From contig NC_003272.1 of the NCBI RefSeq assembly GCF_000009705.1, forward strand, positions 3,690,001-3,722,000: a stretch of 32,000 nt of DNA. The letters are read 5' to 3'. The translations under genes and the position numbers were made by a program. The DNA comes from Nostoc sp. PCC 7120 = FACHB-418. Lineage in GTDB: Bacteria > Cyanobacteriota > Cyanobacteriia > Cyanobacteriales > Nostocaceae. Position 1 is the stretch's first letter. Every line of letters starts with the position of its first letter. Shown here in pieces: positions 1,853 through 30,981 of this stretch. The notes below the pieces were generated by a model that had not been told where the DNA came from, did no database searches, and saw only the letters and a list, made by a program, of their open reading frames with translations.

Positions 1853-2347
1853 TTATCTTTCGGCTTGCCTATTTCTCCATCTAGTGATAGCTCGAAAATA
1901 TGCGGCTACGGGAATTTGATAAACTTCTATAAAAATCCAAATAATAATTGATAAATGCGACAAAAAAGTTAATATTGTCCAAATATACGGCAGCCAAGTC
2001 AGAGGATCATGCACTGTCGGTGGAAAATAATAAGCGACAATGCCAATTAAAGTTGTAGGCAGTAAGACAAAAATAGTGGCAGCTAACCCATAACCCCAAC
2101 CTAATTCTACACCTTCTAACTGAGCTTCTGCCCAATTAAAGCCATTCCAGCGCCAAATTAAAGGAGGTTGACGAGAAGGCATCTTAATTTGCTGCTGTTC
2201 TATATTGACAGTAAAAATCTCGTGGCAGAAATCACAACCCATCGCCTCCATCAACGGTATGTGAGAAATTTTCCCTACTCGACAAACCGGACAGGGATAA
2301 ACATCATGAGTATCGAAAGGTTTGGTAAAGAGTTTAGACCTGGACAT
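1853..2347 (-). CDS. conserved hypothetical Zn-ribbon membrane protein
   Basis: Two CxxC pairs (CPVCRVGK ... CDFCHEIF) are followed by two hydrophobic helices. The track start at 2353 is a TTG; the first ATG is at 2347 (MSRSKLF). Confidence 0.55.
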   Translation of the reverse strand: MSRSKLFTKPFDTHDVYPCPVCRVGKISHIPLMEAMGCDFCHEIFTVNIEQQQIKMPSRQPPLIWRWNGFNWAEAQLEGVELGWGYGLAATIFVLLPTTLIGIVAYYFPPTVHDPLTWLPYIWTILTFLSHLSIIIWIFIEVYQIPVAAYFRAITRWRNRQAER

Positions 2348-2636
2348 AATCAAACTGTCTTGAAAATAGCAATTAGGGACTGGTGAGCCAACAGGGTATT
2401 CGGAGTTTTCCTCATAAAGCTGATAATTGTGTGTAAAAAATACCTCTGTAGGCTCATGTTATGGTTTGATTTACTGATAATTATGCTCATCGATTACTCA
2501 TTACCTAACCAATAAGATTGATCTAAATTGAGAACGGTCTATTAATAATAAACATCCTGCTATATATCTACCAGGAAAAGGCTTTGAGTCTCAGATTTGT
2601 ACTGAGTTTATCGTTTTTCCAGAAGTTTTGCTGGTC

Positions 2637-2665
2637 TTGACGCTACCAAATTCTTCTGTTATCTT
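2637..2665 (+). promoter_or_regulatory. candidate sigma70-type promoter for the aroF leader (TTGACG-17 nt-TATCTT)
   Basis: TTGACG at 2637-2642, a 17-nt spacer, then TATCTT (TAnnnT) at 2660-2665. This lies ~36 nt upstream of the first leader ORF. It is a sequence match only, and other -10-like hexamers (TAAGAT at 2671) are nearby. Confidence 0.25.
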
Positions 2666-2707
2666 TGTTTTAAGATAACGTAATACGTATACTTTTCGCT
2701 TACTATT

Positions 2708-2770
2708 GTGCATACACTCAGCAGCAGTTGTTATTTTTATTTTTGGCGTAAGGCGGTTCACGGGGTGTGA
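2708..2770 (+). CDS. candidate leader peptide 1, 20 codons: (M)HTLSSSCYFYFWRKAVHGV
   Basis: GTG start, no upstream in-frame ATG (TAA at 2681), no obvious SD. It has five consecutive aromatic codons, TAT TTT TAT TTT TGG, at 2732-2746. Codons 16-18 (GCG GTT CAC, 2753-2761) form the antiterminator arm. Stop TGA is at 2768-2770. Confidence 0.4.
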   Translation: MHTLSSSCYFYFWRKAVHGV

Positions 2771-2806
2771 ATTAAGTTTCCCAATGGAAACCGCCCAGTG
2801 AACCGC
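2753..2806 (+). promoter_or_regulatory. antiterminator pairing of attenuator module 1
   Basis: GCGGTTCAC (2753-2761) is perfectly complementary to GTGAACCGC (2798-2806). The latter overlaps the 5' arm of terminator 1 (2801-2810), so the two structures are mutually exclusive. An alternative 7-bp pairing GGCGGTT (2752-2758)/AACCGCC (2789-2795) also exists. Confidence 0.45.
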
Positions 2807-2834
2807 AGAGCGAACTCTGCGGTTTTTGTTTTTT
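2801..2834 (+). terminator. intrinsic terminator T1 in the aroF leader
   Basis: Perfect 10-bp stem AACCGCAGAG/CTCTGCGGTT with loop CGAA, running into TTTTTGTTTTTT. No upstream + strand CDS exists for it to terminate. Confidence 0.7.
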
Positions 2835-2855
2835 CAGGAGTAAAATTTTATCGTG

Positions 2856-2918
2856 ATGACCTATTTTATTAGCTGGTTTTATAGCTTTTACTTTTGGCCC
2901 AAACCAAGTTCCGGGTAA
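2856..2918 (+). CDS. candidate leader peptide 2, 20 codons: MTYFISWFYSFYFWPKPSSG
   Basis: ATG at 2856 (in-frame GTG at 2853), preceded by AGGAG at 2836-2840. Nine of 20 codons are aromatic (3 Tyr, 4 Phe, 2 Trp). Codons 18-20 (AGT TCC GGG) overlap the antiterminator arm. Stop TAA is at 2916-2918. Confidence 0.55.
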   Translation: MTYFISWFYSFYFWPKPSSG

Positions 2919-2954
2919 ATAGCGTCATGCCGATAAATCATACGCGCCCGGAAC
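2908..2954 (+). promoter_or_regulatory. antiterminator pairing of attenuator module 2
   Basis: GTTCCGGG (2908-2915, inside the end of leader ORF 2) is complementary to CCCGGAAC (2947-2954), which is the 5' arm of terminator 2. Confidence 0.45.
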
Positions 2955-2980
2955 CCCAAGGTTCTGGGCTTTTTTGTTTT
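2946..2980 (+). terminator. intrinsic terminator T2 in the aroF leader
   Basis: 10-bp stem GCCCGGAACC/GGTTCTGGGC (one G-U pair), loop CCAA, followed by TTTTTTGTTTT. Confidence 0.7.
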
Positions 2981-2999
2981 CAAAAGTTTAGGGAGTCAT

Positions 3000-3045
3000 C
3001 AATTCAAAATACCCTACGGGAAGCTAAAGCTACAAAATTCAAAAT
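3000..3045. repeat. left copy of a 46-bp perfect inverted repeat bracketing aroF
   Basis: CAATTCAAAATACCCTACGGGAAGCTAAAGCTACAAAATTCAAAAT is the exact reverse complement of 4068-4113. Confidence 0.95.
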
Positions 3046-3063
3046 TCAAAATTGATAATAACT

Positions 3064-3093
3064 CCCCAGTCCCCAGTCCCCAATCCCCAACCC
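3064..3093. repeat. STRR heptamer array (CCCCAGT/CCCCAAT)
   Basis: CCCCAGTCCCCAGTCCCCAATCCCCAACCC lies between terminator T2 and the aroF RBS. This is the classic Nostocales short tandemly repeated repetitive sequence. Confidence 0.85.
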
Positions 3094-3110
3094 TTTAGGA
3101 GAATCCAACC

Positions 3111-3983
3111 ATGATTAACGCTAAACTCGTTGCCCAATCTCACCCTAATCACCAGACAATTGTTCAAATCTCAGAAACAGTTGCTTTTGGTGGGAAAGAA
3201 TTAGTAATTATCGGTGGCCCTTGTACAGTGGAAAGCTTAGAGCAAATGGAGACGGTCGCTCAACATTTAGAAGGCTCGTCTGTACAGGCGTTGCGGGGTG
3301 GTGTTTACAAACCTCGTACATCACCCTACGCTTTCCAGGGTATGGGAGAGGCTGGATTAGATGTTTTAGCTCAGGTGCGATCGCATTACAATATGCCTGT
3401 TGTGACTGAAGTGATGTCAATTGCTCAAATTGAGGCAATCGCCACCCATGTTGATATGTTGCAGGTGGGTAGCCGCAATATGCAGAACTTCGATTTACTC
3501 AAAGCCTTAGGACAAGCGGGTAAGCCCATACTTCTCAAGCGTGGTTTAGCCGCGACAATAGAAGAATTTGTGATGGCGGCTGAATACGTCGTCAGTCATG
3601 GTAATCCTGATGTGGTGCTGTGTGAACGGGGTATCCGTAGCTTCGATAATTACACCCGCAACGTTTTAGATTTAGCAGCAGTAGTAGCACTCAAGCAAAT
3701 TACTCATTTACCTGTGATTGTCGATCCTTCCCATGCTGTGGGTAAACGGGAACTAGTTGCACCTTTAGCTAAGGCGGCTGTGGCTTGTGGTGCAGATGGT
3801 TTAATTATTGAGTGTCATCCAGAACCAGAAAAATCTGTGTCTGATGCCCGTCAGGCTTTATCTTTAGAAGATATGGTGAGTTTGGTTGATAGTTTAAAGC
3901 CTGTAGCCTTAGCTGTTGGACGGACTATATCAGAAATAAAAGGGGTGGGTTTCAAGCCTACCCCTATTTGTTGTGTGGCTTAA
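3111..3983 (+). CDS. aroF: 3-deoxy-7-phosphoheptulonate (DAHP) synthase, type I-beta
   Basis: AGGAG lies 9 nt upstream of the ATG. Motifs are [35 protein letters not shown] and [14 protein letters not shown], typical of the KDO8PS-like DAHPS subfamily. At 290 aa it is essentially the catalytic barrel only. Confidence 0.9.
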
Positions 3984-4067
3984 ATTTTTCCTGGGAGTGG
4001 GGAGCGATTATTCATTTTGAATTGATTCCTCCCCTGTTTCTTCTCCTCCCTCATCCCATCCGGTTTT

Positions 4068-4113
4068 ATTTTGAATTTTGTAGCTTTAGCTTCCCGTAGG
4101 GTATTTTGAATTG
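4068..4113. repeat. right copy of the 46-bp perfect inverted repeat bracketing aroF
   Basis: Exact reverse complement of 3000-3045. It abuts the doxX stop codon (4114-4116). A further partial copy, ATTTTGAATTGAT at 4014-4026, matches the reverse complement of 2998-3010. Confidence 0.95.
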
Positions 4114-4524
4114 TTATTCCTCTGGCTGTGAGACATAAGAAGAGCGATCGCTTGCTTCTAAACTAAGAGTGCCAGAACCATAAGCGAGGATGAGTAACAG
4201 TCCGCCAATAATAGACAAATTCTTGAAAAAATTATTGAATTGACTAGGATCAGCGAAGGGATTGTGAAACACGATGGTAGCAGGAATGAGGAAAATGATG
4301 AGTAAAATCGCGCCAATCTCTGCTTTATAGCCCAGAATAATAGACAATCCACCTAATATCTGAAATGCAATAGTAAAAATTAGTAGTACTCCTACTATAG
4401 GTAGTCCGGCTTTAGCCATAGATTCACTAGTCTGGGCAAAGTTAAAGACTTTGTTCACGCCAGCGTAAATAAAAATCACAGCCAGAAAAGAACGAGCGAC
4501 CAAAGGAATGTATTTTTTTAACAT
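4114..4524 (-). CDS. DoxX family membrane protein
   Basis: MLKKYIPLVARSFLAVIFIYAGVNK... with four hydrophobic helices typical of DoxX. I prefer the internal ATG at 4524 over the track start at 4578, which would overlap the divergent gene. Confidence 0.75.
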   Translation of the reverse strand: MLKKYIPLVARSFLAVIFIYAGVNKVFNFAQTSESMAKAGLPIVGVLLIFTIAFQILGGLSIILGYKAEIGAILLIIFLIPATIVFHNPFADPSQFNNFFKNLSIIGGLLLILAYGSGTLSLEASDRSSYVSQPEE

Positions 4525-6126: not shown

Positions 6127-9100
6127 TTAGCTTTCCGAAGTTTCTTGAACAAACTTCTTACGGATGGTTTTTCTTTGTTCCCCACTATTGACAGTGATCA
6201 GATAATCTAGCAAGTCTTCCGAGAAGGGGACGCGCAGGTGAAAAGTTCCGTCAGATTTGAGTGTGATTGGTTTGCCGGCAATATTGACTGTTGCACCTGG
6301 ATCTGTGGCTCCGTGGATAATTAACTCAGTATCTGCTAAAAACCAAAAATCTCCTTGGGGACTACTAAAGACACGAACAGTGTCGGAACTGGCAATAGTT
6401 ACCCATTCATCGTCTGGGGTAGCGTAGCCAACTTCTGTCATATAGTCACGATCGCTCTGGGGAATTGACACATAGCGATCGCAGGTGATTTCATCAAATT
6501 CATATTGCTGCACCAATTGGGGACGCTGGTAACTCTGGTCAATATTGGTGGCATCATAAAGCCGTAATGCTAGTTGGGAAATCCCTGCATCCTTGAGTAA
6601 TTGCTGATGAGTTGCGGAAATGTCCCAACTTACATAAGCCCACTTGGAAGTACGAGGGTGGAAGACAACACTACTGGCTTCGTCTATTGCTGGTAAATTT
6701 TGGGATAGAGAGTCTATATGTGGGCGATCAAAGATGCGGACGCTATGAGAACGGGCAATAGTAGTCCAGTTTTCACCGCCGCTTAGATAGCCAATTTCGA
6801 TTATATAATCGCGATCGCTTGCCGGAATGGGTACATAGCGATCGCTTGTTCCTGGCTCACATTCATACTGCTGTGCCTGGTGGGGATTTTGGTAACTCAG
6901 ATCAACACCAGTAATGTCATAAAGTCGCAATGCTAATTCTGAGGAACCTTGAGCTTGGAACTTTTGCTGATCACTAGGTGAAATATACCAAGAAACATAA
7001 GCCCATTCAGGGTTACGGGGTCTGATGACAATATTACTGTCTTCTTCCTCGTCTGCTAACTCCTCGGTTGTGGCTAAATTCTCTTCAGGAGTATTAGGTG
7101 ATGGTAATACTGTGGATGTGTCACTTTCCTCAACATCATTTTTACCAACCCAGGTTTCTACCCCTACACCTGCTAAGACTGCACCACCGGCTAAAACCCC
7201 TAAACTGGATGGAGTGAGATATTCTGGATCTTCCAGTGTGCTACTCTCATGAACTTCGGCTGCATCGGCTACCAAATTGAGTGCATCTTCGGGAATATCG
7301 GCAAATTTTGGCAGTGAAGCTGTTACTTCCGCCGTTGTTTCTTGTTGGGGTAATTCAGTCGAGGCGATCGCTGCTATGGTTTCCTCAACTTGTTCATCCA
7401 CAGATGAGATATTTGTCTGTTCTATAATTGGGGCTGTCCAATTGTTAGCGACTTCGCTATTTTCTTCTGGTTCATCGGCAAAAATCGCCTCAAAGTCTGG
7501 CAAGTCTGGCAGTGAGTCCACTATCTCAGATGTATCTTCGCTGACTGGATAGGTTGCTAATTCGGGTTCTTGGTTATCTTCTGGCTCCCCATAAGTTTGA
7601 TCTGGTAAATTTGCTGGCGGCTGGGGTTGTTCCTCTGTGATTGGGTGATGATTATCCCCATTCGATGAGATTTCGGGGATTTCTGGGGCGATATTTGCTG
7701 TTTGTGTTTCTGTATTAGTGGGCGCTTTCCCGACTTCGATCATTTGGGGATAGGAAGTGTTAACCACAGATGCTGGTGCTTCCATATCCCAAGGTGATTG
7801 CTCCAATTCAGGCGGGATTGTTACTTGATAATTACTAGTGTAATTGGTGTTCTTCGGCTCTTGATCAGCTACAGCCGTGGTATTTGTGGTGGGGGATGCT
7901 ACTGCACTTGTCCCTGCGACTGCGGTCACAGTATTGCCATCACTTACGGTGGGATGTAGCCCATTGCGGATTTCTACTAATGGTTCAGTGGTAGGTGTTT
8001 CCGTCTCGCCAGAAATGGGTTCTGTGGTGCTTTCTAATACTTTATTTGTGGATGGACGTTTAACAAACCACAATAATAGTCCAGCTATAGCCCCTACTGG
8101 CAACAACAACCACCATAGCAAAGAGCGATCCAATCTAGGTGTTTCTGGGGGAGCCACTACAGCAGGCTGATTCACATTAGTGCTGGTACTGGCAGCATTA
8201 GGAAAAGTGTTAGCTGTGGGTGTGGTTTCCAGAATGGGAGAGGAATTGATTGCTGGTGTGGTTTCTGCTGTGGGGGAAGAATTGGCTGCTGGTGTAGCCA
8301 GAGAATTGGCGGTTGTAAAGGATGCTTGTTGAACTGCATCTTTGGCGATCGCTTCTGCTTCAGCTGCTCTTGCCGTTTCTATTGCCTTTTGCCCTGGTGA
8401 TGCTAAAGCAAAACCGAGAAAAGCGGCGATCGCTGGACTAGGATTCTTTTTATAAACGTAAACTAGCGGCTGAGAAAAAGGATATTTAGGGTCATCTGGT
8501 GAGGTGTCGTGTAATTTAAGTACTCGCACACCAGGCAATTTGGATATTTGATTAGCTCTGGCGTAGCTGATTCCGTCTTTACCCAGTTGTTTGACAATTT
8601 CGGTGGTGTTGTCTTCTGTTATCTGAGTCGCAGTCGAGCCTGTGGCAAATTTAGCAGCCTTGAAGACTGGATAGTTATTTAATGCTTCGCGGGTATCGCT
8701 GGTGCTAGGGCGATCAATCACCCGAATCCTCGCTGATGGCGCTCCTAGTTGTGACCAATTAGTAATGCGTCCGCGAAAAATTCTGGCAAATTGCCGATCT
8801 GTCAAGCTGCCTTTAAAGGGATTTTCTTCCCCAACAATAATAGCTATCTTTTCCCGATGTAACCTGACCTGTTCTAAACCTTGGGCTTTTTCTTCCGGGG
8901 TCAAACCACGACCAATAGCTGCCACATCAATACTTCCATCTAATACAGATTTGAGGGCAGCTTCTGTACCATTAATAGCCACATCTACTCTTGTACCAGT
9001 GAACTGTTGCTCAAAACCCTGTTTTAGGCTTTGATTCACTGCTATCAAGGTACTTGAGCCATCAATCCGCACTGTCGTGCCGTTTTCCACAGTTTGCGGT

Positions 9101-9243
9101 AGCGCGAAATTGGGTGTGTCAGTCTCCGATTGTGCCAGCATGGGGGCTGACAATAACAGATTTGCTGCGATGGGGGTGGTTGTTAAGGCAAACAATAATG
9201 CCAGATTCACTATGCCACTATCTTGTTTATTTTTTTGCCACAT
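6127..9243 (-). CDS. 1038-aa membrane protein: signal/anchor, PstS-like periplasmic binding domain, TM helix, long acidic low-complexity region, two DUF4912-like repeats
   Basis: PBP_like_2-type motifs occur at aa ~55-290 (DGSSTLIAVNQSLKQGF...VAINGTEAALKSVLDGSIDVAAIGRGLTPEEK). A hydrophobic helix LLWWLLLPVGAIAGLLLWFV is at aa 375-394. Aa 400-736 are Glu/Pro/Thr-rich. Two ~100-aa repeats (aa 737-838 and 858-959) both carry P-R-x-x-x-W-A-Y-V-S-W, LALRLYD, DRYV-IP-SDRDY. Confidence 0.85.
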   Translation of the reverse strand: MWQKNKQDSGIVNLALLFALTTTPIAANLLLSAPMLAQSETDTPNFALPQTVENGTTVRIDGSSTLIAVNQSLKQGFEQQFTGTRVDVAINGTEAALKSVLDGSIDVAAIGRGLTPEEKAQGLEQVRLHREKIAIIVGEENPFKGSLTDRQFARIFRGRITNWSQLGAPSARIRVIDRPSTSDTREALNNYPVFKAAKFATGSTATQITEDNTTEIVKQLGKDGISYARANQISKLPGVRVLKLHDTSPDDPKYPFSQPLVYVYKKNPSPAIAAFLGFALASPGQKAIETARAAEAEAIAKDAVQQASFTTANSLATPAANSSPTAETTPAINSSPILETTPTANTFPNAASTSTNVNQPAVVAPPETPRLDRSLLWWLLLPVGAIAGLLLWFVKRPSTNKVLESTTEPISGETETPTTEPLVEIRNGLHPTVSDGNTVTAVAGTSAVASPTTNTTAVADQEPKNTNYTSNYQVTIPPELEQSPWDMEAPASVVNTSYPQMIEVGKAPTNTETQTANIAPEIPEISSNGDNHHPITEEQPQPPANLPDQTYGEPEDNQEPELATYPVSEDTSEIVDSLPDLPDFEAIFADEPEENSEVANNWTAPIIEQTNISSVDEQVEETIAAIASTELPQQETTAEVTASLPKFADIPEDALNLVADAAEVHESSTLEDPEYLTPSSLGVLAGGAVLAGVGVETWVGKNDVEESDTSTVLPSPNTPEENLATTEELADEEEDSNIVIRPRNPEWAYVSWYISPSDQQKFQAQGSSELALRLYDITGVDLSYQNPHQAQQYECEPGTSDRYVPIPASDRDYIIEIGYLSGGENWTTIARSHSVRIFDRPHIDSLSQNLPAIDEASSVVFHPRTSKWAYVSWDISATHQQLLKDAGISQLALRLYDATNIDQSYQRPQLVQQYEFDEITCDRYVSIPQSDRDYMTEVGYATPDDEWVTIASSDTVRVFSSPQGDFWFLADTELIIHGATDPGATVNIAGKPITLKSDGTFHLRVPFSEDLLDYLITVNSGEQRKTIRKKFVQETSES

Positions 9244-11226: not shown

Positions 11227-11241
11227 ATCAATTCAAAATAA

Positions 11242-11297
11242 GTCAACAGTCAACAGTCAACAGCCAACAGTCAACAGTCAACAGTCAACAGTCAACA
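11242..11297. repeat. STRR heptamer array, 8 x (G)TCAACA(G/C) = CAACAGT family
   Basis: GTCAACAGTCAACAGTCAACAGCCAACAGTCAACAGTCAACAGTCAACAGTCAACA lies between mutL and hisD. Confidence 0.95.
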
Positions 11298-11405
11298 TTA
11301 AAATCATCAGATTGAGTCAGCCTTTGACTTCCACTCAGGGTTAATATCGCTCTACACTAAATATTGTCCTTACTGCAAACCGGCATTAGCCCAGAGATAC
11401 TGTCC

Positions 11406-12701
11406 ATGCTAGTCTTGAAAACAACCGACAAAGAATTTTCTCCCAGATTCCAAAGCTTGGTGAGCGATCGCCGAGAAGCAACGGTTGATGTTAGTGGTAC
11501 AGTACGCGATATACTCGCTCATGTAAAAGCGCGTGGTGATGCCGCAGTCCAGGAATATACCAGTCGTTTTGATCACTATAGACCCCATTCTCATCATTTA
11601 AGTGCGGCTTTCATTGCCGAACAAGCAGCGAAATGTTCAGATGAGGTAAAAGCAGCCTTAGAACTAGCGGCTGAACGTATTAGTTCTTTTCATCAAAAAC
11701 AATTACCCCAAGATATTGGTTACACCGATACCGCAGGCGTAAAACTGGGCTTAAATTGGGTAGCTTTATCGCAAGTGGGAATTTATGTCCCTGGCGGACG
11801 CGCCAGTTACCCCAGTTCGGTCTTGATGAATGCCCTACCCGCCAAAATTGCAGGTGTAGAACGCATCGTTATGACTGTGCCTATGCCTCATGGGGAAATC
11901 AATCCCGCCGTTCTGGCTGCTGCCCAAGTCGCCGGCGTAACAGAAATATATAGTATAGGTGGAGCGCAAGCAGTCGGGGCGTTAGCCTACGGTACAGAAA
12001 CTATCACCCCCGTAGATAAAATTGTCGGGCCTGGTAATGCCTACGTTGCTGAAGCCAAACGCCAAGTATTTGGGACTGTGGGTATTGACAGCATCGCCGG
12101 GCCTTCGGAAATTTTAGTTGTCGCCGATCGCCAAAACAATCCAGAATGGATCGCCTGGGATTTATTATCCCAAGCTGAACACGATCCCAGCGCTCAATCA
12201 ATTTTAATTACTGACTCTGAATCCTTTGCCCAACAAGTGATTGCGGCGGTAGAGCAAATCCTCACTACCTTACCCAGTCAAAAAGTAGCCAGTAGTAGTT
12301 GGCAAAATCATGGGGCAGTGATTATTGTTAGGGATTTAGCCGAAAGTATCCCTTTACTCAATCAACTAGCTCCAGAACACGTAGAACTGTGTGTAGATAA
12401 CCCTCAATTGCTAGCTAGTCAAATTAAGTGTGCTGGTAGTTTATTTTTAGGTCGTTATACTCCAGAGGCGATCGGTGATTATTTAGGTGGCCCCAATCAC
12501 GTATTACCTACTTCCCGTTCTGCCCGCTTTGCTTCCGGCTTAAGTGTCTACGATTTTCTCAAGCGCATTACCTATTTAGAATGCAATCAAGCGGCATTGC
12601 AGAAAATAGGCCAGTCCGCCGTCACTCTTGCAGAAACTGAGGGTTTACCAGCTCATGCAGGTAGTGTAGCGGTGCGTTTGCAAGGGCTGAAAGATATGTA
12701 G
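11406..12701 (+). CDS. hisD: histidinol dehydrogenase
   Basis: Motifs are YVPGGRASYPSSVLM, IGGAQAVGALAYGT, VGPGNAYVAEAKR, SQAEHD and GGPNHVLPT. The track start at 11364 is a TTG; the first ATG is at 11406 (MLVLKTTD). Confidence 0.93.
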   Translation: MLVLKTTDKEFSPRFQSLVSDRREATVDVSGTVRDILAHVKARGDAAVQEYTSRFDHYRPHSHHLSAAFIAEQAAKCSDEVKAALELAAERISSFHQKQLPQDIGYTDTAGVKLGLNWVALSQVGIYVPGGRASYPSSVLMNALPAKIAGVERIVMTVPMPHGEINPAVLAAAQVAGVTEIYSIGGAQAVGALAYGTETITPVDKIVGPGNAYVAEAKRQVFGTVGIDSIAGPSEILVVADRQNNPEWIAWDLLSQAEHDPSAQSILITDSESFAQQVIAAVEQILTTLPSQKVASSSWQNHGAVIIVRDLAESIPLLNQLAPEHVELCVDNPQLLASQIKCAGSLFLGRYTPEAIGDYLGGPNHVLPTSRSARFASGLSVYDFLKRITYLECNQAALQKIGQSAVTLAETEGLPAHAGSVAVRLQGLKDM

Positions 12702-13377: not shown

Positions 13378-14592
13378 ATGCGTAAACCAGTTCTAACCAT
13401 CTTTTACCAGTTCAATCCCTGGCAAACTTCTATTGGAGGAATTCAGACATTAATCAACACGTTTATCAAGTATGCTCCTAGTGATTTTGAAGTGCGGCTG
13501 GTGGGAACAGCTAGCGATTCTAGTCAGTCCCTTGGTAAATGGCAAGATGCAGAATTTGCAGGTAGAGAGGTTAGCTTTTTACCTATTCTCAAGTTAGAAG
13601 ACGATAACGTTAGAGGTTTAATCCCAACTACAGTCAGATATACGGCTGCATTGTTAGGCCGTTCCCTGTCATCAGATTTTATGCACTTTCATCGGCTTGA
13701 GCCTAGCTTGGCAGCCATGAACTGGCAGGGAGAAAAAACGATATTTATTCACAATGATATTCACACACAGATGGCAACTGTGGCCGACCGCAAAGCCATA
13801 CTGTGGCGCAGATTTCCAGCAGCCTACTTTGCTCTTGAGAGTATATTAATCCGCCAGTTTAGTCAGATATTGTCTTGTAACACTGATGCTGCACAGTTTT
13901 ACCGCCAGCGTTATCCCCAATTACAAGACCGTGTGGCATTCGTAAAAAACTCCTTTGATAACGAGGTTTTCTATTCTGGGAGTCAGCCGCAAAGGGAAGC
14001 TAATCGGCGCGAATTAGCATTGCAGATGGGACTAGACCCAGCAACACGTTTTATTCTGTTTGCTGGAAGACTGCATCCCCAAAAAGATCCAGTGTTGTTA
14101 GTACGTGCTTTCGCCGCTTTAAATCAACCCCACACTCACCTATTGATAGCAGGCGATGGAGAATTAGCTACTCCAGTACGTCAGGAAATTGAACAGTTAG
14201 GCTTATCTAGTCAGGTAACAATGCTGGGAGCATTGAAACAAAAAGAATTGGCTAGATTGCATCGCTTGAGTAGTGCTTTTGTTCTCAGCAGCGCTTATGA
14301 AGGTTTACCCTTAGTTGTCTTAGAAGCCTTGGCTAGTGGAACGCCGGTGGTAACAACTAAATGCGGTGAAACTCCTAAATTACTTCATTGCGATAGTGGT
14401 ATTGTCTGTGAGCAAAGAACACCGGATTCTATAGCCGATGCTTTACGGCGGATATTATTAAAGCCACAAGATTATCCCGTTGAGGCTTGTGTCCGCACGG
14501 CACAACCTTATGCTGCGCGTACTGTTGTGAGAGATGTTTATGGCGATATGTTAAATCGCTGGGAATTAAAAGAATTCTCGGTAATTAGCTGA
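13378..14592 (+). CDS. glycosyltransferase family 4 (GT-B)
   Basis: C-terminal retaining GT-B signature SSAYEGLPLVVLEALASGTPVVTT (E-x7-E). Confidence 0.85.
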   Translation: MRKPVLTIFYQFNPWQTSIGGIQTLINTFIKYAPSDFEVRLVGTASDSSQSLGKWQDAEFAGREVSFLPILKLEDDNVRGLIPTTVRYTAALLGRSLSSDFMHFHRLEPSLAAMNWQGEKTIFIHNDIHTQMATVADRKAILWRRFPAAYFALESILIRQFSQILSCNTDAAQFYRQRYPQLQDRVAFVKNSFDNEVFYSGSQPQREANRRELALQMGLDPATRFILFAGRLHPQKDPVLLVRAFAALNQPHTHLLIAGDGELATPVRQEIEQLGLSSQVTMLGALKQKELARLHRLSSAFVLSSAYEGLPLVVLEALASGTPVVTTKCGETPKLLHCDSGIVCEQRTPDSIADALRRILLKPQDYPVEACVRTAQPYAARTVVRDVYGDMLNRWELKEFSVIS

Positions 14593-14657
14593 CAAACAGA
14601 CAGTTTTCCCAACTGTCTTTAATTTTAGTGTGTTCCCTCATCAAAGAATTCAACATC

Positions 14658-15854
14658 ATGACTATGAAAATTGCTGTAATTGGTGCAAAAGGTCTTCCTC
14701 CTAAACAGGGTGGCATTGAGCATTACTGTGCAGAAGTATATCCTCGGATAGTTGCACAAGGTCATAGCGTGGATTTATTTGCTCGTTCTTCATATACAGA
14801 CACTGCTTGGCTGGGAAATTATGATTTTCAAGGTGTGCGAGTCATTTCCTTACCTGGGATAGATGCCAGAGGCGCAGACGCATTCGTCACCTCTGCGTTA
14901 GGAGCGATCGCTGCAACCGCAGAGAGATATGATATTGTCCATTTCCATGCTCTTGGCCCAGCTCTGTTCACTTTCCTACCCAGAATTGCCAACTCAGCGA
15001 AAATTGTAGTTACTTGTCAAGGTTTAGATTGGCAACGCGCCAAGTGGGGTAGCTTCTCGACTCGGCTAATTCAAGGGGGAGAACAGGCAGCAGTTCGTTT
15101 TGCTCACGGTATGGTTGTTGTCTCTGATGCTCTTAAAACCTACTTCGCGGAAACCTATGGACGGGACACAGTTTATATCCCCAACGCTCCCGCAAGCTAT
15201 GGTGAATCAGACCTCAGTTTTACCTATGGTAAAAAACTGGGTTTAGAGTCAGGGCGTTACATGATCTTTGTGGGCAGAATCGTTCCCGAAAAGCGTCCTG
15301 ATTTACTGATTGAAGCCTTTTCTAAATTACAAGCACCAGGATGGAAACTAGTATTAGCGGGAGGTGTCAGCGATACTCAATCTTATACCTCTCAATTATT
15401 AGAAAAGGTCGCTAATAATCCCAATATTATTTTTGCAGGTGAATTGCGAGGCCCTCGTTTATGGGAAATTGTTCGCGGTGCAGGAATGTTTGTTTTACCC
15501 TCTGATTTAGAGGGATTACCTTTAGCAATGCTGGAAGCTATGCAGGAAGGTATACCAGTAGTCGCCAGCGATATTTTGCCTCACCAACAATTGATTAATG
15601 GAGGCATGGGAACCCTCTTTATGGCTGGTAATACAGACTCTTTAGTGAGTTCCTTAGATTGGGCAATTCGTCATCCCCAACAAGTAGCAGCAATGGCTAA
15701 AAATGCCCAAAGAAATATTCAATTAAATTATAGTTGGGAGCATATAACTGCGGAAAATCTCAAACTATACAAAACACTGTTAAATTCACCTCAACCGGTA
15801 GGTGCATCGAAGTCTAGAGAAGTTCGTCTAGCCAGAGTTGGTAGTAAAGAATAA
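14658..15854 (+). CDS. glycosyltransferase family 4/1 (GT-B)
   Basis: MTMKIAVIGAKGLPPKQGGIEHY... and PSDLEGLPLAMLEAMQEGIPVVASD. The track start at 14628 is a GTG; the first ATG is at 14658. Confidence 0.85.
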   Translation: MTMKIAVIGAKGLPPKQGGIEHYCAEVYPRIVAQGHSVDLFARSSYTDTAWLGNYDFQGVRVISLPGIDARGADAFVTSALGAIAATAERYDIVHFHALGPALFTFLPRIANSAKIVVTCQGLDWQRAKWGSFSTRLIQGGEQAAVRFAHGMVVVSDALKTYFAETYGRDTVYIPNAPASYGESDLSFTYGKKLGLESGRYMIFVGRIVPEKRPDLLIEAFSKLQAPGWKLVLAGGVSDTQSYTSQLLEKVANNPNIIFAGELRGPRLWEIVRGAGMFVLPSDLEGLPLAMLEAMQEGIPVVASDILPHQQLINGGMGTLFMAGNTDSLVSSLDWAIRHPQQVAAMAKNAQRNIQLNYSWEHITAENLKLYKTLLNSPQPVGASKSREVRLARVGSKE

Positions 15855-15959
15855 TTGCACACATCCAGAAGTCAGAATCAAGAATCTTCTCATTTCTGGC
15901 TTCTTCATCACACAGGTGCAAGCCTTCTCGTAGAGTATTGTGAATTACGGGTATATGTA

Positions 15960-18143
15960 ATGGGAAAAGGCATTTCAACCTTACTAGGAGTCTTGGGACG
16001 CAGAGGCTTTCCGGCTGTGACTGTGTTTGCAGCTGTCATCGGAGCATCATTTGCTTACTTGGCGGTGACACCACGTTTGTATGAAACATCAGCACGATTG
16101 ATGTTGGATGATAAAAAGGCGAGTGTGTCTGAATTGGGTCGTGACTTGACACAGATAACGCCTACAGGTGTTGGACGTAATCCCTTAGCAGATCAGGCAG
16201 AGTTACTGAAGTCACAAACAGTCTTACAACTGGCTATTTCTAAACTCAATCCGCCAATAAAAGATAGTTCCACACAAAAACCACTAACACCTTCAGATAT
16301 TCGCTCAAATTTGAAAGTGATTATAGTCCCAGCGACTAACATTTTAGATTTGAGGTATCAAAGTCCCGAACCAAATCAAGCAGCTCAGGTTCTCAATGCT
16401 GTATCTCAGGCGATGGTGGAGGAAAATATCAAAACCATCAGTTCTGAGGCTACTAAGGTCAGGGAATTTTTGGCCGAAAAAGTACCCATAGCGCGTCAAC
16501 GACTACTACAAGCAGAACTAGCGGAAACTAAATACAGACAACAAAGCGGCGTTGTCGCCACAGATGATCAGACCAGGAGTCTGGTGGGTAGTTTAGCGGA
16601 ACTGGAAAATCAAGAACGTACCTTGGCGGTACAACTTCAAGAAACGCGATCGCGCGACGCATCTTTACGCCAAGTGACAGATGCGAAAAATATCAATACC
16701 GCTTACGCCTCTGTCAGAGAAGGACAAGACGAACAACTCAAGGTATTACGCACCAAGTTAACTGATATAGAAACCAAGCTAATAGAAGCACGTACCAAAT
16801 ATCAAGAAGCCCATCCCACAGTTTTGGATCTAGTCGAACAAAGGAATGAAATCCGCGCTTTGTATGGACAGCAGATGGCTAGGGTATCTTCTAGTGGACA
16901 AACAGATAATTTTCAGGATTTAGCCAACGACCAAATTAGTCAAACCCTCATTTCTGATTTAATCACCAATGATATTACGCGTTTAGCCGTAGAAAATAAG
17001 CTGAATGCTATCCAGAAAATGAGAGCTAATATTCAAAGTCGTTTGGCACTCATCCCTATTCAACAGCAACCGTTGACCGTCCTCACTCGTCAACGGGAAG
17101 AAGCCGCCGAATCACTCAAGTTTCTCCAAAGCAAACTAGAAGAAGCACAGATTGCTGAGGCGCAGAAAGTTAGCAACATCCGCATTATTGAGACGGCTGT
17201 AGCCCCAGAGTTACCCACATCCCCGAAACGTACAGTAGTACTTGTGATTGCTGGGTTCTTTGGCAGCATCTTAGCTGTGGGACTGGTATTGCTACTGGAA
17301 CTCATGGATAACACTCTGCGCGATGCGACAGAAGCCGAAGAGTTACTGCAATTACCATTGTTGGGAGTTTTACCCCGTCTTCCTGCTACCAAACTCAGTC
17401 TGGAACCAGCCGAACAATTTCTTGATGACTTGGGTTTGGTGGAACCTTACCGGATGCTGCTGAAGAATCTGGAGTTTCGCAATGTGGACAATTTGCAGGT
17501 GATAGTTGTCAGCAGTCCCCTTTCTGGAGAAGGTAAGTCAGTTATTGTCTCCCATCTGGCTGCGGTCGCTGCCATGTTATCTCGGCGGACATTAATTATT
17601 GATGCAGATTTGCGTAAACCCTCACAACATACCCTATTTAACTTACCGCCCAGACCAGGAATTACAGATGTAATTGATGGGACTAGACCTTTACTGAGTG
17701 CTGTGCAGTCAACAACCATAGAAAATCTTTCGGTGTTGACTTGCGGCGAATTGCGAGGAAGACCTTCCCAGATCCTAGAGTCAGCCGCGATGAAGTCTTT
17801 GGTGGCAGAAGCAGCCCAACGCTACGATTTAGTAATTATTGATACCCCACCCTTGAGCGCCTGCGCTGATGCTTCCACCTTGAGTCAGATGAGTGATGGA
17901 GTCATCCTCACCACACGCCCCGGTTTTACCTTGAAGGAGGTATTACAACGAGCCGTGTCAGAACTCAACCAAAATCGCATTCCCGTTTTGGGGGTAGTGG
18001 TCAATGGTATGGCAACTGACATAGAAAAATACTACCGTTACCCATCGGAGGAATATCCCTCGATATTATCTAGACCGTTGAGACGTTTAACATCTCTGGG
18101 TAGTAGCGCCAGAAATTCATCCAACGATTCTAGGTCGAACTGA
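15960..18143 (+). CDS. polysaccharide co-polymerase / tyrosine autokinase (Wzc/GumC-like, PCP-2a)
   Basis: N-terminal TM, then a long coiled-coil periplasmic region, a GNVR-like SNIRIIETAVAPELPTSPKR and a second TM. The kinase has Walker A SGEGKS, A' LIIDADLRKP and B DLVIIDTPP, plus a Tyr cluster YYRYPSEEY. The track start at 15855 is a TTG directly after the upstream stop; the ATG at 15960 (MGKGIST) is preferred. Confidence 0.85.
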   Translation: MGKGISTLLGVLGRRGFPAVTVFAAVIGASFAYLAVTPRLYETSARLMLDDKKASVSELGRDLTQITPTGVGRNPLADQAELLKSQTVLQLAISKLNPPIKDSSTQKPLTPSDIRSNLKVIIVPATNILDLRYQSPEPNQAAQVLNAVSQAMVEENIKTISSEATKVREFLAEKVPIARQRLLQAELAETKYRQQSGVVATDDQTRSLVGSLAELENQERTLAVQLQETRSRDASLRQVTDAKNINTAYASVREGQDEQLKVLRTKLTDIETKLIEARTKYQEAHPTVLDLVEQRNEIRALYGQQMARVSSSGQTDNFQDLANDQISQTLISDLITNDITRLAVENKLNAIQKMRANIQSRLALIPIQQQPLTVLTRQREEAAESLKFLQSKLEEAQIAEAQKVSNIRIIETAVAPELPTSPKRTVVLVIAGFFGSILAVGLVLLLELMDNTLRDATEAEELLQLPLLGVLPRLPATKLSLEPAEQFLDDLGLVEPYRMLLKNLEFRNVDNLQVIVVSSPLSGEGKSVIVSHLAAVAAMLSRRTLIIDADLRKPSQHTLFNLPPRPGITDVIDGTRPLLSAVQSTTIENLSVLTCGELRGRPSQILESAAMKSLVAEAAQRYDLVIIDTPPLSACADASTLSQMSDGVILTTRPGFTLKEVLQRAVSELNQNRIPVLGVVVNGMATDIEKYYRYPSEEYPSILSRPLRRLTSLGSSARNSSNDSRSN

Positions 18144-18145
18144 AG

Positions 18146-19555
18146 ATGAGGAATTATCAGCGCTCAATTAACTTTTCTGCTCTAGCCATCTGGTTAGGAG
18201 TGATAATTATCGGTTTGATTGCCGGGTTTGCTGCTGGTGCTAGTCCAGTTTTACCTGGTTTAGCGGTAGTTTCATTAGTAGTACTGGGTTTCTTTTTTAG
18301 AAATCTAGAACAAGCCGTATTGAGCGCTTTGATTATTCGCAGTGCCATAGATGGTATTGTTTCTCCGCCCTTACCCTCTGCGTTTGCGATCGCTATCGAC
18401 ATCCTCACCTTACTATATGTAGTCGTTCTGTTGTTTCAAAAGCGCACTGTACACACCGATTGCTTTTTGTGGTTCTTCGTTGCTTGGGTAATTTTCCAAG
18501 CGATGTGGTTAGTGCTTTTACCTATAGGTGGACTAGGACTGGATGGCGCAGTTTTTGCTACTAGTTTACGAGAATGGGTTCGCTTGTTCTCTTGGCTGAT
18601 GGTTTATTTACTAGTCATGCAGCTAAAGGAGAAGACTCACCCCCAAACCGTGATCAATCTCCTGTTTTGGGCTTTAGTCATACCTCTGGCGATCGCATTT
18701 TTGCAAATGTTCGTGCCTGGGCTTTTGCCATCCCAGTTTGCACCTTTGTCTGGGGGGGTTTTGTCTGAAGGTTCTCGCATTAGAGGTAGTATTGGGCATC
18801 CTAACAGTTTTGCTACCTTCTTATTATTATTTATTGGTCTGACTACCTGGAAGCTAACTATTACTAAAGTACGCTGGCCTTGGTTGCTGTTGCTGGGCTT
18901 ACTGGCTTTCTTTTATGTCAGTACAAAAGCATTGTTTAGCTTGATGATGTTGGCTGTATTCATGCTGGTGTTAATTGCTCCCAGATTAAGTTTATTGAAA
19001 CTTATCGGTGCAGTGTTTTTCTTCGGCTTAGTAATATTTCTGTTCGGTAGTACAGAGTTTGGACAACAACGGCTGGGATCAATAGCACAAACACCATTGC
19101 TCAACCCAGATATAGATATATGGCGAGCAATTCTCTTATCTTATAGCGACAATAACAGCTTCAACTGGCGAATTGCTCAATGGCACGAATTACTCGAAGC
19201 CTGGAAACAGTACCCACTGTTCGGTTACGGGTTGGGCGTGACTACACATATTGCTAGTAACGGTTTATATGCCCATAACGATTACGTCCGGGCATTAACA
19301 GAAGGTGGAATTGTTGGTTTAGTCAGCTTTATAGCCTTCTTTGGTGTACAGATTGGGCGAATTGTGCAGTTAATGAGGCGATCGCTATTCAATAAAACAC
19401 AGAATAGTCTTTGCTTGGTTTTATTAGCACTTATTTTAACAATGCCTGTGGGAATGATTACTGAAAATGTTTGGAGTCATACCATGTTGTTCTTTTATTG
19501 GTTTACTTTGCTGGCGGTAGCCGGTTGGGATTGGAACGCCAAGCCCACAACGTAA
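18146..19555 (+). CDS. O-antigen ligase/polymerase family protein (Wzy_C domain)
   Basis: About 11 predicted TM helices. The motif HAHNDYVRALTEGGIVGL is typical of the Wzy_C/O-antigen ligase family. The start lies 2 nt after the wzc-like stop. Confidence 0.8.
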   Translation: MRNYQRSINFSALAIWLGVIIIGLIAGFAAGASPVLPGLAVVSLVVLGFFFRNLEQAVLSALIIRSAIDGIVSPPLPSAFAIAIDILTLLYVVVLLFQKRTVHTDCFLWFFVAWVIFQAMWLVLLPIGGLGLDGAVFATSLREWVRLFSWLMVYLLVMQLKEKTHPQTVINLLFWALVIPLAIAFLQMFVPGLLPSQFAPLSGGVLSEGSRIRGSIGHPNSFATFLLLFIGLTTWKLTITKVRWPWLLLLGLLAFFYVSTKALFSLMMLAVFMLVLIAPRLSLLKLIGAVFFFGLVIFLFGSTEFGQQRLGSIAQTPLLNPDIDIWRAILLSYSDNNSFNWRIAQWHELLEAWKQYPLFGYGLGVTTHIASNGLYAHNDYVRALTEGGIVGLVSFIAFFGVQIGRIVQLMRRSLFNKTQNSLCLVLLALILTMPVGMITENVWSHTMLFFYWFTLLAVAGWDWNAKPTT

Positions 19556-19623
19556 TACAATTCAAAATTCAAAATAAACATTCTTAAATTCCATATTACA
19601 CAGATTAATAATAAGGAAGCATC

Positions 19624-20703
19624 ATGGCTGATAATTCTCAAACTAAGAAAAAACTTTATACTATCCAAGTATTGCGGGGGTTAGCAGCAGTGCTGGTAGT
19701 ACTCGCACATGGAGACTTAATTTTTAATCAAAACTTTGGTCAAGATTTTTGGTTTAAAATATTTAATTTTGGCGGCTCTGGTGTAGACTTTTTCTTTGTC
19801 TTGAGTGGATTTATTATTTTGTATGTCCACAAAAAGGATATTGCCAATAAAAGTAAAACATTTACATTTTTATTTAAAAGATTTCTGCGGATCTACCCTA
19901 TATACTGGGTTTTTCTTAGTCTAAAACTGTTAGCTTCTTTTACATTTTCTTATAATCCCAGTAGCACCGAAAGAAGCTTAATTGAGACGCTGAAAGCATT
20001 TACCTTGTTTCCCCAGCAGCAAGAAATTCTTTCGAGTAGTTTCTTGGGTGTCAGTTGGACTTTAAGCTATGAAATTTTATTCTATATAATTTTTGCTATA
20101 TTAATCGGCTTACCAACTAGAATTTCGTTCCCCATAGTTGGTGTTTGGCTATTAGGTGTATTAGGTAATTTTTGGGGATTACTGAATTTACCCCCAGATA
20201 GCGTATTTCTTCGGTTCATTTTTAGTCATTATAATCTGGAATTTGCCTTGGGTTGCTTGGCAGCATATTTATTTGCTAGATCCAAAATTAAATGGGGAAT
20301 GGTTTTAATCTCTGTTGGCGCTTTTCTTTACACGCTGTCGGCAATTAATTATTACCATCAAATTGTCAATTTGTCGCAAGTCATTACCTTTGGTATTCCT
20401 TCCATGTTGCTTGTACTAGGTTGTGTTTCTCTAGAGAACACAAAAAATATTCAGGTTCCTCCCTTACTTGTATATTTAGGTGATGCTTCTTACTCTATTT
20501 ACTTGGCGCATGGATTTGCGATTAATAATATTAGCAAAATCATCCAAAAGATTTATCCCAGTATGACCGAAAATATTTTTGTTTTAAATAGTATTGGTCT
20601 TGTAATTGCTGTAATGTCTATTGTGTTTGGCTGCATAGTTCATTCGTTCATTGAAAAACCATTGATCTTTGCTTTTCAACCTAGAAAAACAGCCAATGCT
20701 TAG
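19624..20703 (+). CDS. acyltransferase family 3 (membrane O-acyl/acetyltransferase)
   Basis: IQVLRGLAAVLVVLAHG..., GVDFFFVLSGF, multi-pass membrane protein. Confidence 0.85.
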   Translation: MADNSQTKKKLYTIQVLRGLAAVLVVLAHGDLIFNQNFGQDFWFKIFNFGGSGVDFFFVLSGFIILYVHKKDIANKSKTFTFLFKRFLRIYPIYWVFLSLKLLASFTFSYNPSSTERSLIETLKAFTLFPQQQEILSSSFLGVSWTLSYEILFYIIFAILIGLPTRISFPIVGVWLLGVLGNFWGLLNLPPDSVFLRFIFSHYNLEFALGCLAAYLFARSKIKWGMVLISVGAFLYTLSAINYYHQIVNLSQVITFGIPSMLLVLGCVSLENTKNIQVPPLLVYLGDASYSIYLAHGFAINNISKIIQKIYPSMTENIFVLNSIGLVIAVMSIVFGCIVHSFIEKPLIFAFQPRKTANA

Positions 20704-20769
20704 ATAGTTTAAAACATTAATTTCTAATCGGATTTTTACGGTTCTCATTATTAAGAAAAAAGCTAATAT

Positions 20770-21735: not shown

Positions 21736-21778
21736 TGAGAGTAATCAAGACCAAAGCTAGTTATTTTCGGTGAAAGAT

Positions 21779-25423: not shown

Positions 25424-25433
25424 GTCATAACAC

Positions 25434-26564: not shown

Positions 26565-26607
26565 TTAACCCAGTGTAGATGTGGCAATATTAGGGAGGCT
26601 AAATTTT

Positions 26608-27552: not shown

Positions 27553-27601
27553 TGAGTATTTATTAAGGGAACATCAAAAAATAAATTATCCGAAAATACT
27601 T

Positions 27602-28552: not shown

Positions 28553-28781
28553 TCAAGAAAAATATCTTCCTTTTGGAGGTATAAGGCTTTTTAGTATTTG
28601 GATAAAATGGCTTTGGCCGTGATGTTTTAAAACCCATGCCGTGATTCAAGACGCGGACAGAAATTACTAATGATATCATCATCCATCCTCCTTTAGTAAT
28701 TTATGCCGACGGCAATATAGGCGACAGTAAGTCATCGCACAACATTCACGCCAACTGCACATCCATGAACGCAGCTAAAAA

Positions 28782-29963: not shown

Positions 29964-29985
29964 TTACATTCCAAAACCAAACATT

Positions 29986-30942: not shown

Positions 30943-30981
30943 AATCCTGCATAATTCCGCATTGAAATTACCTCCAAACTT

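Follow-up and report, generated by a model that had tools for sequence, protein, structure and literature searches.

Why should two strong intrinsic terminators, each preceded by a 20-codon open reading frame (ORF) rich in aromatic codons, stand ahead of a gene for the first step in the synthesis of tyrosine, phenylalanine and tryptophan? The question is raised by the leader of aroF, which encodes a 3-deoxy-D-arabino-heptulosonate 7-phosphate (DAHP) synthase, in a 32,000-nucleotide (nt) stretch of the Nostoc sp. PCC 7120 chromosome that was analysed as a whole and is called the window here (a window coordinate plus 3,690,000 gives the chromosome coordinate). An earlier interpretation made without database searches, below called the sequence-only reading, had recognised in this leader the layout of ribosome-mediated attenuation. 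That proposal is now supported by conservation, by covariation, by folds of the first module in which ribosome positions are masked, and by a published transcription start site (TSS) and terminated RNA. We predict that the leader is a tandem ribosome-mediated leader-peptide transcription attenuator answering to Tyr, Phe and Trp, and put the probability of this at about 80 %.

Two leader modules conserved ahead of aroF

Two modules follow each other on the plus strand upstream of aroF. In module 1, ORF1 (2708..2770; 20 codons, GTG start, TGA stop, peptide MHTLSSSCYFYFWRKAVHGV) precedes the intrinsic terminator T1 (2800..2834), whose stem at 2800-2825 is followed by TTTTTGTTTTTT, the T-run reaching 2834. 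In module 2, ORF2 (2856..2918; 20 codons, ATG start, peptide MTYFISWFYSFYFWPKPSSG) precedes the intrinsic terminator T2 (2946..2980), with a stem at 2946-2969 followed by TTTTTTGTTTT, the T-run reaching 2980. A terminator scan ranks T1 and T2 as the two best terminator-like sites within 2300-4200. The regulatory codons of ORF1 are Tyr-Phe-Tyr-Phe-Trp at 2732-2746, while ORF2 has its aromatic codons at 2862-2867 and 2874-2897 (YF..WFY.FYFW); with five in ORF1 and nine in ORF2, they make up 14 of the 40 codons. The ORF list and the terminator scan place the ORFs, the terminators, the aromatic codons and the FYFW core as the sequence-only reading had done, and the complementarity that it had noticed between ORF ends and terminator arms (2753-2761 with 2798-2806, 9 base pairs; 2908-2915 with 2947-2954, 8 base pairs) can be read directly from the sequence. 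Its measurements need small corrections: the T1 stem begins at 2800 rather than 2801, and the distance from stop codon to terminator, given as 31 and 28 nt, is 29 nt in module 1 (2771-2799) and 27 nt in module 2 (2919-2945).

The evidence that carries the prediction is comparative. A set with one genome per species yielded 80 aroF loci, two of which had less than 110 nt of upstream DNA; the others (78/78) all carry the two ORFs, the two terminators and the two antiterminator pairings. The consensus peptides over these 78 loci are M-x4-S-YFYFW-(F/Y)-R-V-V-H-R-E for ORF1 and MTYFSSWFYGFYFWPRxSSG for ORF2. The two cores lie 136-164 nt apart in most loci, and each ORF has its own terminator behind it. 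The element spans several cyanobacterial orders, Nostocales among them; Nostoc, Anabaena, Calothrix, Tolypothrix, Scytonema, Fischerella, Chlorogloeopsis, Mastigocoleus, Coleofasciculus, Microcoleus, Potamolinea, Floridaenema, Aerosakkonema, and Stenomitos and other Leptolyngbyaceae are represented. In the AroF protein search, the best 120 matches listed were all at least 84 % identical.

More distant copies turn up in metagenomes. A degenerate pattern for the ORF2 core gave 109 matches in metagenome contigs, about 70 of which have the ...SSG end and a CCCGGAA-type terminator; wherever the contig reaches far enough, an aroF homolog of 67-88 % identity lies 130-250 nt downstream of these copies. 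The other matches, with neither terminator nor aroF, are in-frame chance matches. Divergent lineages keep both modules in altered form, as in contig L093, where ORF1 reads MPTSSNYFWFWFREVHRE, and in contig L164 (MTYLALAFFYWFCGVCLM).

Some contigs depart further from the common plan. In L164 (about 560-800), module 1 has strongly diverged and is followed by a different terminator. A rearranged, Microcoleus-like metagenome contig (L116, 3180-3520) has kept T2 and a start-less ORF2 and has lost module 1. Given these two forms, the tandem arrangement can therefore be remodelled.

Module 1: an antiterminator that covaries

The final sense codons of ORF1 (2753..2765) form the 5' strand of antiterminator 1. 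They pair with 2794..2806, a strand that shares 2800-2806 with the 5' arm of T1. In a 77-sequence alignment, 91.9 % of the cells of this outer helix are paired, and four of its pairs show compensatory change, A-U being replaced by G-C in 15 sequences and G-C by C-G in 15. The exchange is seen in Microcoleus, where GTTCACCGGG/CCCGGTGAAC becomes GTTCGCCCGG/CCGGGCGAAC in 15 sequences and the end of the ORF1 peptide shifts from VHRE to VRPE. Since the C-terminal residues of ORF1 change together with compensatory changes in the partner strand, RNA pairing, and not the peptide sequence, is what selection maintains at the 3' end of this ORF. The terminator itself is 95.4 % paired across the 77 sequences. 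An A-to-G change in its 5' arm is matched in the 3' arm in five sequences, and antiterminator 1 retains a U-G pair at that place.

Two smaller hairpins accompany antiterminator 1. One, GGTTCAC-N5-GTGAAT(T) at 2756..2773, holds the invariant TGA stop codon; it belongs to the RNAalifold consensus, has a median energy of -6 kcal/mol across loci and could possibly act as a protector or as a pause hairpin. The other, GTTTCC-CAAT-GGAAAC at 2776..2791, sits in the loop of antiterminator 1 and is 78 % paired; other clades have a different hairpin in its place. A pairing in the 5' untranslated region (2695-2701 with 2808-2814), which appears in the fold of the window sequence, has no visible counterpart in other species and was excluded from the element.

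When about 28 nt around the ribosomal A site are blocked and the leader is refolded, module 1 switches structure with the position of the ribosome. Without a ribosome, or with one stalled at Tyr11 (2738), the full antiterminator forms and T1 does not. A stall at Trp13 gives a partial antiterminator together with a 9-base-pair T1, and a ribosome on the stop codon leaves T1 alone. From these states it follows that the early aromatic codons are the effective ones.

The transcript in vivo

A promoter scan places the start of the leader behind a -35 box TTGACG (2637..2642) and an extended -10 box TGTTATCTT (2657..2665). This arrangement, TTGAC(A/G), a 17-nt spacer and an extended -10 element (TGnTAnnnT), is kept in nearly all aroF loci. 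An element resembling ATAGGTAT(A) at about 2677-2690, 12-15 nt past the -10 box, is likewise kept in most loci and belongs to the first nucleotides of the leader transcript.

Published data place a transcript behind this promoter. Table S3 of Brenes-Alvarez et al. 2016 gives a predicted small RNA (sRNA), 3692672f, which runs for 150 nt from a TSS at 3692672 to 3692822 and has 27 homologs (PMC4734099). Because the Northern probe primers of that study (Table S1, PMC4734099) match the window exactly, at 2373-2392(+) and 2915-2934(-), the RNA can be placed on the window: its TSS is at 2672, 7 nt past the -10 box, and its predicted end lies within T1. The sequence-only reading had called for a TSS near 2672 and for premature 3' ends at T1, and both are on record, the first from differential RNA sequencing (dRNA-seq) and the second from a Northern-confirmed 150-nt RNA ending at T1 (PMC4734099). 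The RNA is marked "validated by Northern blot", and RNAs of the predicted size were seen in 14/14 tested cases (PMC4734099).

The dRNA-seq reads of 3692672f, 2268 altogether, rose from 285 (0 h) to 1402 (8 h without nitrogen) in the wild type, and only from 209 (0 h) to 372 (8 h) in a hetR mutant (PMC4734099). In such counts of the T1-terminated leader (2672-2822), promoter induction and altered termination would look alike.

An antisense sRNA, 3692999r, is also predicted, running from 2999 to 2803 on the minus strand (196 nt, 118 reads) and flagged as a 'putative peptide according to RNAcode' (PMC4734099). It would cross T2 and ORF2 before stopping at the T1 hairpin, and its TSS lies at the edge of a repeat element. 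The RNAcode flag may simply reflect the coding signal of ORF2. Identity of the leader with another RNA of the same authors, the conserved peptide-coding sRNA ncl0160 (Brenes-Alvarez 2016), was rejected: its probe primers match neither the window nor any of the loci, even when five mismatches are allowed.

Could the region then encode one or two trans-acting sRNAs, the 150-nt RNA being the functional product and the ORFs and the position of aroF incidental? 3692672f is a separate RNA species that has a TSS and a terminator to itself, well represented among the reads, confirmed by Northern blot and more abundant after 8 h of nitrogen step-down (PMC4734099). An attenuator-derived RNA with a trans function is also known, as an account of rnTrpL in Sinorhizobium indicates (PMC7298713). 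Yet the unit is always found on the same strand as aroF and at a short fixed distance ahead of it, where the downstream sequence suffices. Its aromatic codons show coding-type substitution, and an RNA that acted in trans alone would have no use for a covarying pairing between an ORF end and a terminator arm. Codons and helices within the leader already explain the conserved segments, although no target search was made. We consider this explanation very improbable; a trans function could add to attenuation but not replace it.

Coding-type constraint on the leader ORFs

The substitution pattern in both ORFs looks like that of coding sequence. An alignment of orthologous leaders, one of the checks proposed in the sequence-only reading, confirmed that ORF length is kept and that the aromatic codons are retained with synonymous and within-class change. 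About 99 % of these codons are kept as a class (378/380 cells at the five core positions of ORF1, 535/539 at the seven core positions of ORF2), and exchange within the class, from Phe to Tyr or from Trp to Tyr, was found in 30 cells, compared with six in which the aromatic residue was lost. Tyr codons are free to vary, with TAC/TAT counts of 50/25 at the first Tyr of ORF1 and, in ORF2, TAT/TAC counts of 44/29 at one position and TAC/TAT counts of 45/32 at another. Counted from the core, the start of ORF1 is an ATG at -6 in 70/76 sequences, and its TGA falls at +12 in 75/76. For ORF2, the start (ATG or GTG) is at -6 or -7 and the stop at +14 in 72/77. The codons N-terminal to the core are variable in both ORFs.

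Unlike the alternating Tyr codons TAT and TAC, the Phe codons of the leader are nearly always TTT (74/76, 74/77 and 71/77). This bias may reflect a preference for the codon that is read by wobble.

The strong conservation of ORF2 extends to residues that are not aromatic, namely Gly, Pro, Arg, Ser and Gly in WFYGFYFWPRxSSG, and could suggest that the peptides themselves matter. The ORFs would then encode functional aromatic-rich micropeptides, or TnaC-like arrest peptides that sense free aromatic amino acids, and the codons would not be sensors of charged tRNA. The sign of such a response would be right, as a ribosome arrested on the stop codon would cover the antiterminator strand and give end-product repression of a biosynthetic gene. 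However, the non-aromatic codons are fixed as nucleotides too, the Gly codons at the end of ORF2 being GGG in 72 of 73 cases, despite three synonymous alternatives, and proline being CCC in 58/77, and they fall in predicted helices. Such nucleotide fixation appears to speak against selection at the level of the peptide, and so do the C-terminal residues of ORF1, which alter in step with RNA compensation, and the varying N-termini. Neither the two peptides nor their consensus forms match a Pfam or NCBIfam family at E <= 10. We therefore regard selection for the peptides in place of tRNA sensing as very improbable. There is an equally slight chance that ORF2 (...FYFWPRxSSG-stop), and perhaps ORF1, also encodes an arrest peptide to which free Tyr, Phe or Trp would bind inside the exit tunnel. 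Release at the stop codon would then be delayed, and the waiting ribosome would keep the antiterminator strand covered and enforce termination. If true, free amino acids would be sensed besides tRNA charging, in a manner like that of TnaC but repressing.

Searches with RNA models were consistent with a leader outside the described families: no Rfam leader, T-box or riboswitch family reached its gathering score in the window, and within 2300-3200 the only Rfam hits at E <= 10 were STnc310 and IS102, both at chance level.

Module 2: a second terminator and its helices

In module 2, the codons Ser-Ser-Gly at the end of ORF2 provide the 5' strand of antiterminator 2, AGUUCCGGG (2907..2915), which pairs with 2947-2955 in the 5' arm of T2. 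Across 78 sequences this helix is 93.3 % paired. The last codons of ORF2, AGT TCC GGG, match the consensus 3' arm of T2, AGTTCCGGG; in the window, this arm reads GGTTCTGGG. T2 is 95.4 % paired in the 78-sequence alignment, with three compensatory pairs. Nine nt lie between the last Trp codon of ORF2 and the antiterminator strand, roughly as far as a stalled ribosome extends in the 3' direction.

This module has an additional feature, a closing helix between 2850..2866, which covers the ORF2 start codon, and 2917..2934 in the spacer past the ORF2 stop. Its median duplex energy is -16.9 kcal/mol, with a median z of -4.2 against shuffled spacers and z < -2 in 84 % of loci. The sequence of the helix varies by clade while the pairing is kept, 72.6 % of the cells being paired when a fixed register is imposed. 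Module 1 has no such helix between start region and spacer (z about 0 across loci). A possible decoy (region 1), GCCCA(A/G)A at 2897..2903, can pair with 2910-2916 and is weak: 78.9 % paired, median -6.7 kcal/mol, z -1.7 and little covariation. The resulting local hairpin, GCCCAGA-N6-TCCGGGT, is weaker than its counterpart in module 1; judged from the sequences, it would account for the nucleotide-level conservation of the Pro-Arg codons of ORF2.

The auxiliary helices of both modules may be protectors that enforce termination when an ORF is not translated, pause hairpins, or devices that allow only one ribosome to initiate; the 1:2 pairing of the trp leader is an analog of the protector type. 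As the two modules share only their aromatic codons and differ in their helices, they are not simple copies of each other, and the term "duplicated" attenuator used in the sequence-only reading goes beyond what the sequences show.

The enzyme and the distance from T2 to aroF

The product of aroF (3111..3983, plus strand) is a class I-beta DAHP synthase that consists of the catalytic barrel only (NCBIfam PRK08673; Pfam DAHP_synth_1). Its match to PRK08673 scores 401 bits and spans positions 69-336 of the 338-position profile, so that the N-terminal regulatory domain is missing; at the C-terminus there is a tail of about 25 residues, with CCVA as its end. Core-only enzymes of the I-beta class, that of Pyrococcus among them, are not known to be feedback-inhibited. 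Because the enzyme has no allosteric domain, attenuation may be the main feedback on this DAHP synthase.

An AGGAG motif (3097..3101) precedes aroF. In other species the distance between T2 and the aroF ATG is short (median 42 nt, minimum 12 nt). This leaves no room for a separate promoter in most species, so aroF is probably transcribed through both terminators, and the conserved promoter with its TSS at 2672 would serve leader and gene alike. In the window the distance is 130 nt, because the upstream copy of a repeat lengthens it.

The repeat in question is a perfect 46-nt inverted repeat that brackets aroF (3000-3045 and 4068-4113), with weaker nested arms (2991-3073 and 3993-4127). The two flanks look like a small repeated element present twice in opposite orientations. 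A run of CCCCAGT/CCCCAAT heptamers (3064-3092), short tandem repeats that are typical of Nostocales, also separates the leader from the ribosome-binding site of aroF.

A proposed mechanism and its weak points

The leader combines several features expected of a classical attenuator. Start, stop and length of both ORFs are kept throughout the comparative set, so that they look translatable; the clustered codons are those of the end products, aroF being the first step towards Tyr, Phe and Trp; T1 and T2 stand between ORF and gene; and each terminator has an antiterminator that would depend on ribosome position, as indicated by covariation and folds in module 1 and by conserved complementarity, with kinetic operation, in module 2. 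From this we infer that both ORFs are translated, that ribosomes stall in them and that termination depends on where they stand.

In module 1, transcription would begin at the conserved sigma-70-type promoter and a ribosome would translate ORF1. With ample charged tRNA-Tyr, -Phe and -Trp, it should reach the UGA stop and cover 2753-2765, which would leave the 5' arm of T1 free; the T1 hairpin would then form and an RNA of about 150 nt would be released. When any of the three tRNAs is short, the ribosome would stall on YFYFW, the 3' end of ORF1 would pair with 2794-2806 and remove the base of T1, and RNA polymerase would continue. In module 2, a ribosome stalled within ORF2, at its nine aromatic codons, would let 2907-2915 pair with the T2 5' arm, while a ribosome on the ORF2 stop would mask this strand and allow T2 to form. 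The closing helix probably keeps module 2 switched off as long as ORF2 goes untranslated, or restricts initiation to a single ribosome. Since the two terminators lie in series and both have to be passed before aroF, their read-through probabilities would multiply, making the response sharper and deeper. Within each module the design would be multivalent, shortage of any one of the three amino acids being sufficient.

Several points weigh against this mechanism. ORF1 starts in the window with GTG and has no Shine-Dalgarno sequence, and the AGGAG at 2836-2840 lies 15 nt ahead of the ORF2 ATG, which is rather far for a Shine-Dalgarno sequence. The GTG start, already an objection in the sequence-only reading, is common to the window and Nostoc parmelioides, and other species use ATG; it is a peculiarity of the PCC 7120 clade and not the rule. 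A second caveat of that reading, that a stall on the last aromatic codons of ORF1 (Trp13, or Phe/Tyr14 in other species) would partly cover the antiterminator strand, is borne out by the masked fold at Trp13. A stall on late codons of ORF2 would, moreover, leave the 5' strand of the closing helix uncovered. The T1-terminated RNA is abundant and increases about 5-fold on nitrogen step-down, which could instead point to a role as sRNA, and a weak antisense TSS is on record at 2999(-) (PMC4734099).

Module 2 also responded less clearly to the checks that had been suggested. Compensatory changes were found in antiterminator 1, T1 and T2, but antiterminator 2 is nearly invariant and shows essentially no covariation. 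Likewise, masking switches module 1 between antiterminator and terminator, but the minimum-energy fold of module 2 holds T2 in every full-length masked state. Antiterminator 2 is the minimum-energy structure only until the 3' arm of T2 has been transcribed. Antitermination in module 2 must therefore be kinetic, as it is in many attenuators.

The permanence of T2 in these folds, together with the closing helix that buries the ORF2 start codon, would also suit control that is mainly translational or exerted through mRNA stability, by sequestration of a start, by reinitiation or by ribosome-dependent RNase cleavage, the terminators being constitutive partial stops. Against it stand the two strong conserved terminators with 5' arms complementary to the ORF ends, the terminated RNA seen in vivo (PMC4734099), and the folds themselves, in which no part of the leader pairs with the aroF Shine-Dalgarno sequence or start codon. 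We give this explanation, too, only a very small probability.

Finally, the leader could be a chance product of T-rich intergenic DNA, for which such codons were indeed a concern of the sequence-only reading, and runs of at least five aromatic codons are not rare in themselves (6 in the six frames of the window, compared with 0.63 in block shuffles); this is refuted, with a negligible residual probability, not by the codon runs alone but because the element is conserved in 78/78 orthologous loci and about 70 metagenome contigs, with constant ORF length, class-preserving codon statistics and covariation.

Relation to known systems

The attenuator proposed here shares its logic with trpL-trpE, pheL-pheA and hisL of enterobacteria: a leader ORF with end-product codons, a terminator whose 5' arm has an alternative upstream partner, and a ribosome whose position decides the structure, good supply leading to termination. 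There is no sequence or Rfam relationship to these leaders. The aroF leader differs from them in several ways: a U-rich, unpaired stretch holds its regulatory codons, each ORF supplies the antiterminator strand with its own last sense codons, two complete modules follow one another, one leader would read three amino acids, and the target is DAHP synthase. In E. coli, DAHP synthase is controlled by the TyrR and TrpR repressors. Cyanobacteria are not known to have Rho.

Peptides that read several amino acids are found in ilvL (ahead of ilvGMEDA, with Leu, Val and Ile codons) and thrL (Thr and Ile), mixed-codon leaders in which shortage of any one amino acid de-represses a shared pathway. They resemble the aroF leader in this respect and differ in their amino acids, in having a single module and in being proteobacterial, and they are not known to be related to it in sequence. 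Sensing units in series are known from the Salmonella mgtCBR leader, where two ORFs (mgtM and mgtP) read different signals, and from tandem riboswitches and tandem T-boxes, which place two sensors in series and need no translation. What these have in common with the aroF leader is the pair of serial sensing units with a combined or sharper response; in the latter, the two units would respond, by way of translation, to the same three amino acids.

The nearest precedent for the target is uORFC-13-1 of Acholeplasma (Brewer et al. 2021, PMC8632094), a candidate upstream ORF with Phe codons that is immediately followed by an intrinsic terminator and precedes aroF. It thus shares with the Nostoc leader both the target gene and the logic proposed for it. 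By its description, to which the likeness is limited, this computational candidate comes from Mollicutes, consists of a single upstream ORF with a U-run coding at least one Phe, and has no mixture with Tyr or Trp (PMC8632094). In cyanobacteria, a comparative study from 2016 found no reliable data for attenuation (PMC4833913), and a preprint from 2026 speculated that Sml0012, upstream of aroQ in Synechocystis, might be an attenuator peptide.

The closest published object is 3692672f, physically the same RNA (TSS 2672, end at T1), which is listed as a putative regulatory sRNA with ORF1, ORF2, T2 and the antiterminators undescribed (PMC4734099). The text of that paper contains no "attenuation", "leader" or aro-prefixed term, and its supplements contain no DAHP, aroF or aroG. 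The claim of the sequence-only reading that such a leader had not been described can thus be kept only in part: a description as an attenuator was not found in the full-text literature, subscription-only literature being beyond reach, but the RNA had already been catalogued. What would be new is the predicted tandem, three-amino-acid, cyanobacterial attenuator on DAHP synthase; the RNA was known as a putative sRNA.

Elsewhere in the window

No leader ORF with His codons precedes hisD (11364-12701) within 11227-11500, and hisD directly follows mutL; the attenuator design is not general for amino acid genes in the window. Of the other regions, 13378-31938 on the plus strand, which takes up the remainder of the window, is a long one-strand cluster for polysaccharide synthesis, with a Wzc-like tyrosine kinase and several GT4 glycosyltransferases. 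A 1038-residue ORF lies at 6127-9243 on the minus strand. Its first 290 residues or so resemble a phosphate-binding protein of the PstS family, with a score below the family cut-off, and the remainder has no family match.

Concluding remarks

How cyanobacteria control amino acid biosynthesis at the level of genes is poorly understood, and the aroF leader would be a well-supported classical attenuator in this group, placed on the committed step of the shikimate pathway. Its design is unusual, with two serial attenuators that would each answer to three amino acids and an enzyme that has no allosteric domain. As the leader is found in a tractable model strain for which a TSS and a Northern probe have been published, it is testable at once. 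The finding bears on the coupling of translation and termination in a bacterium without Rho, and on the engineering of cyanobacteria for aromatic products. It also suggests that catalogued "sRNAs" can be attenuator leaders.

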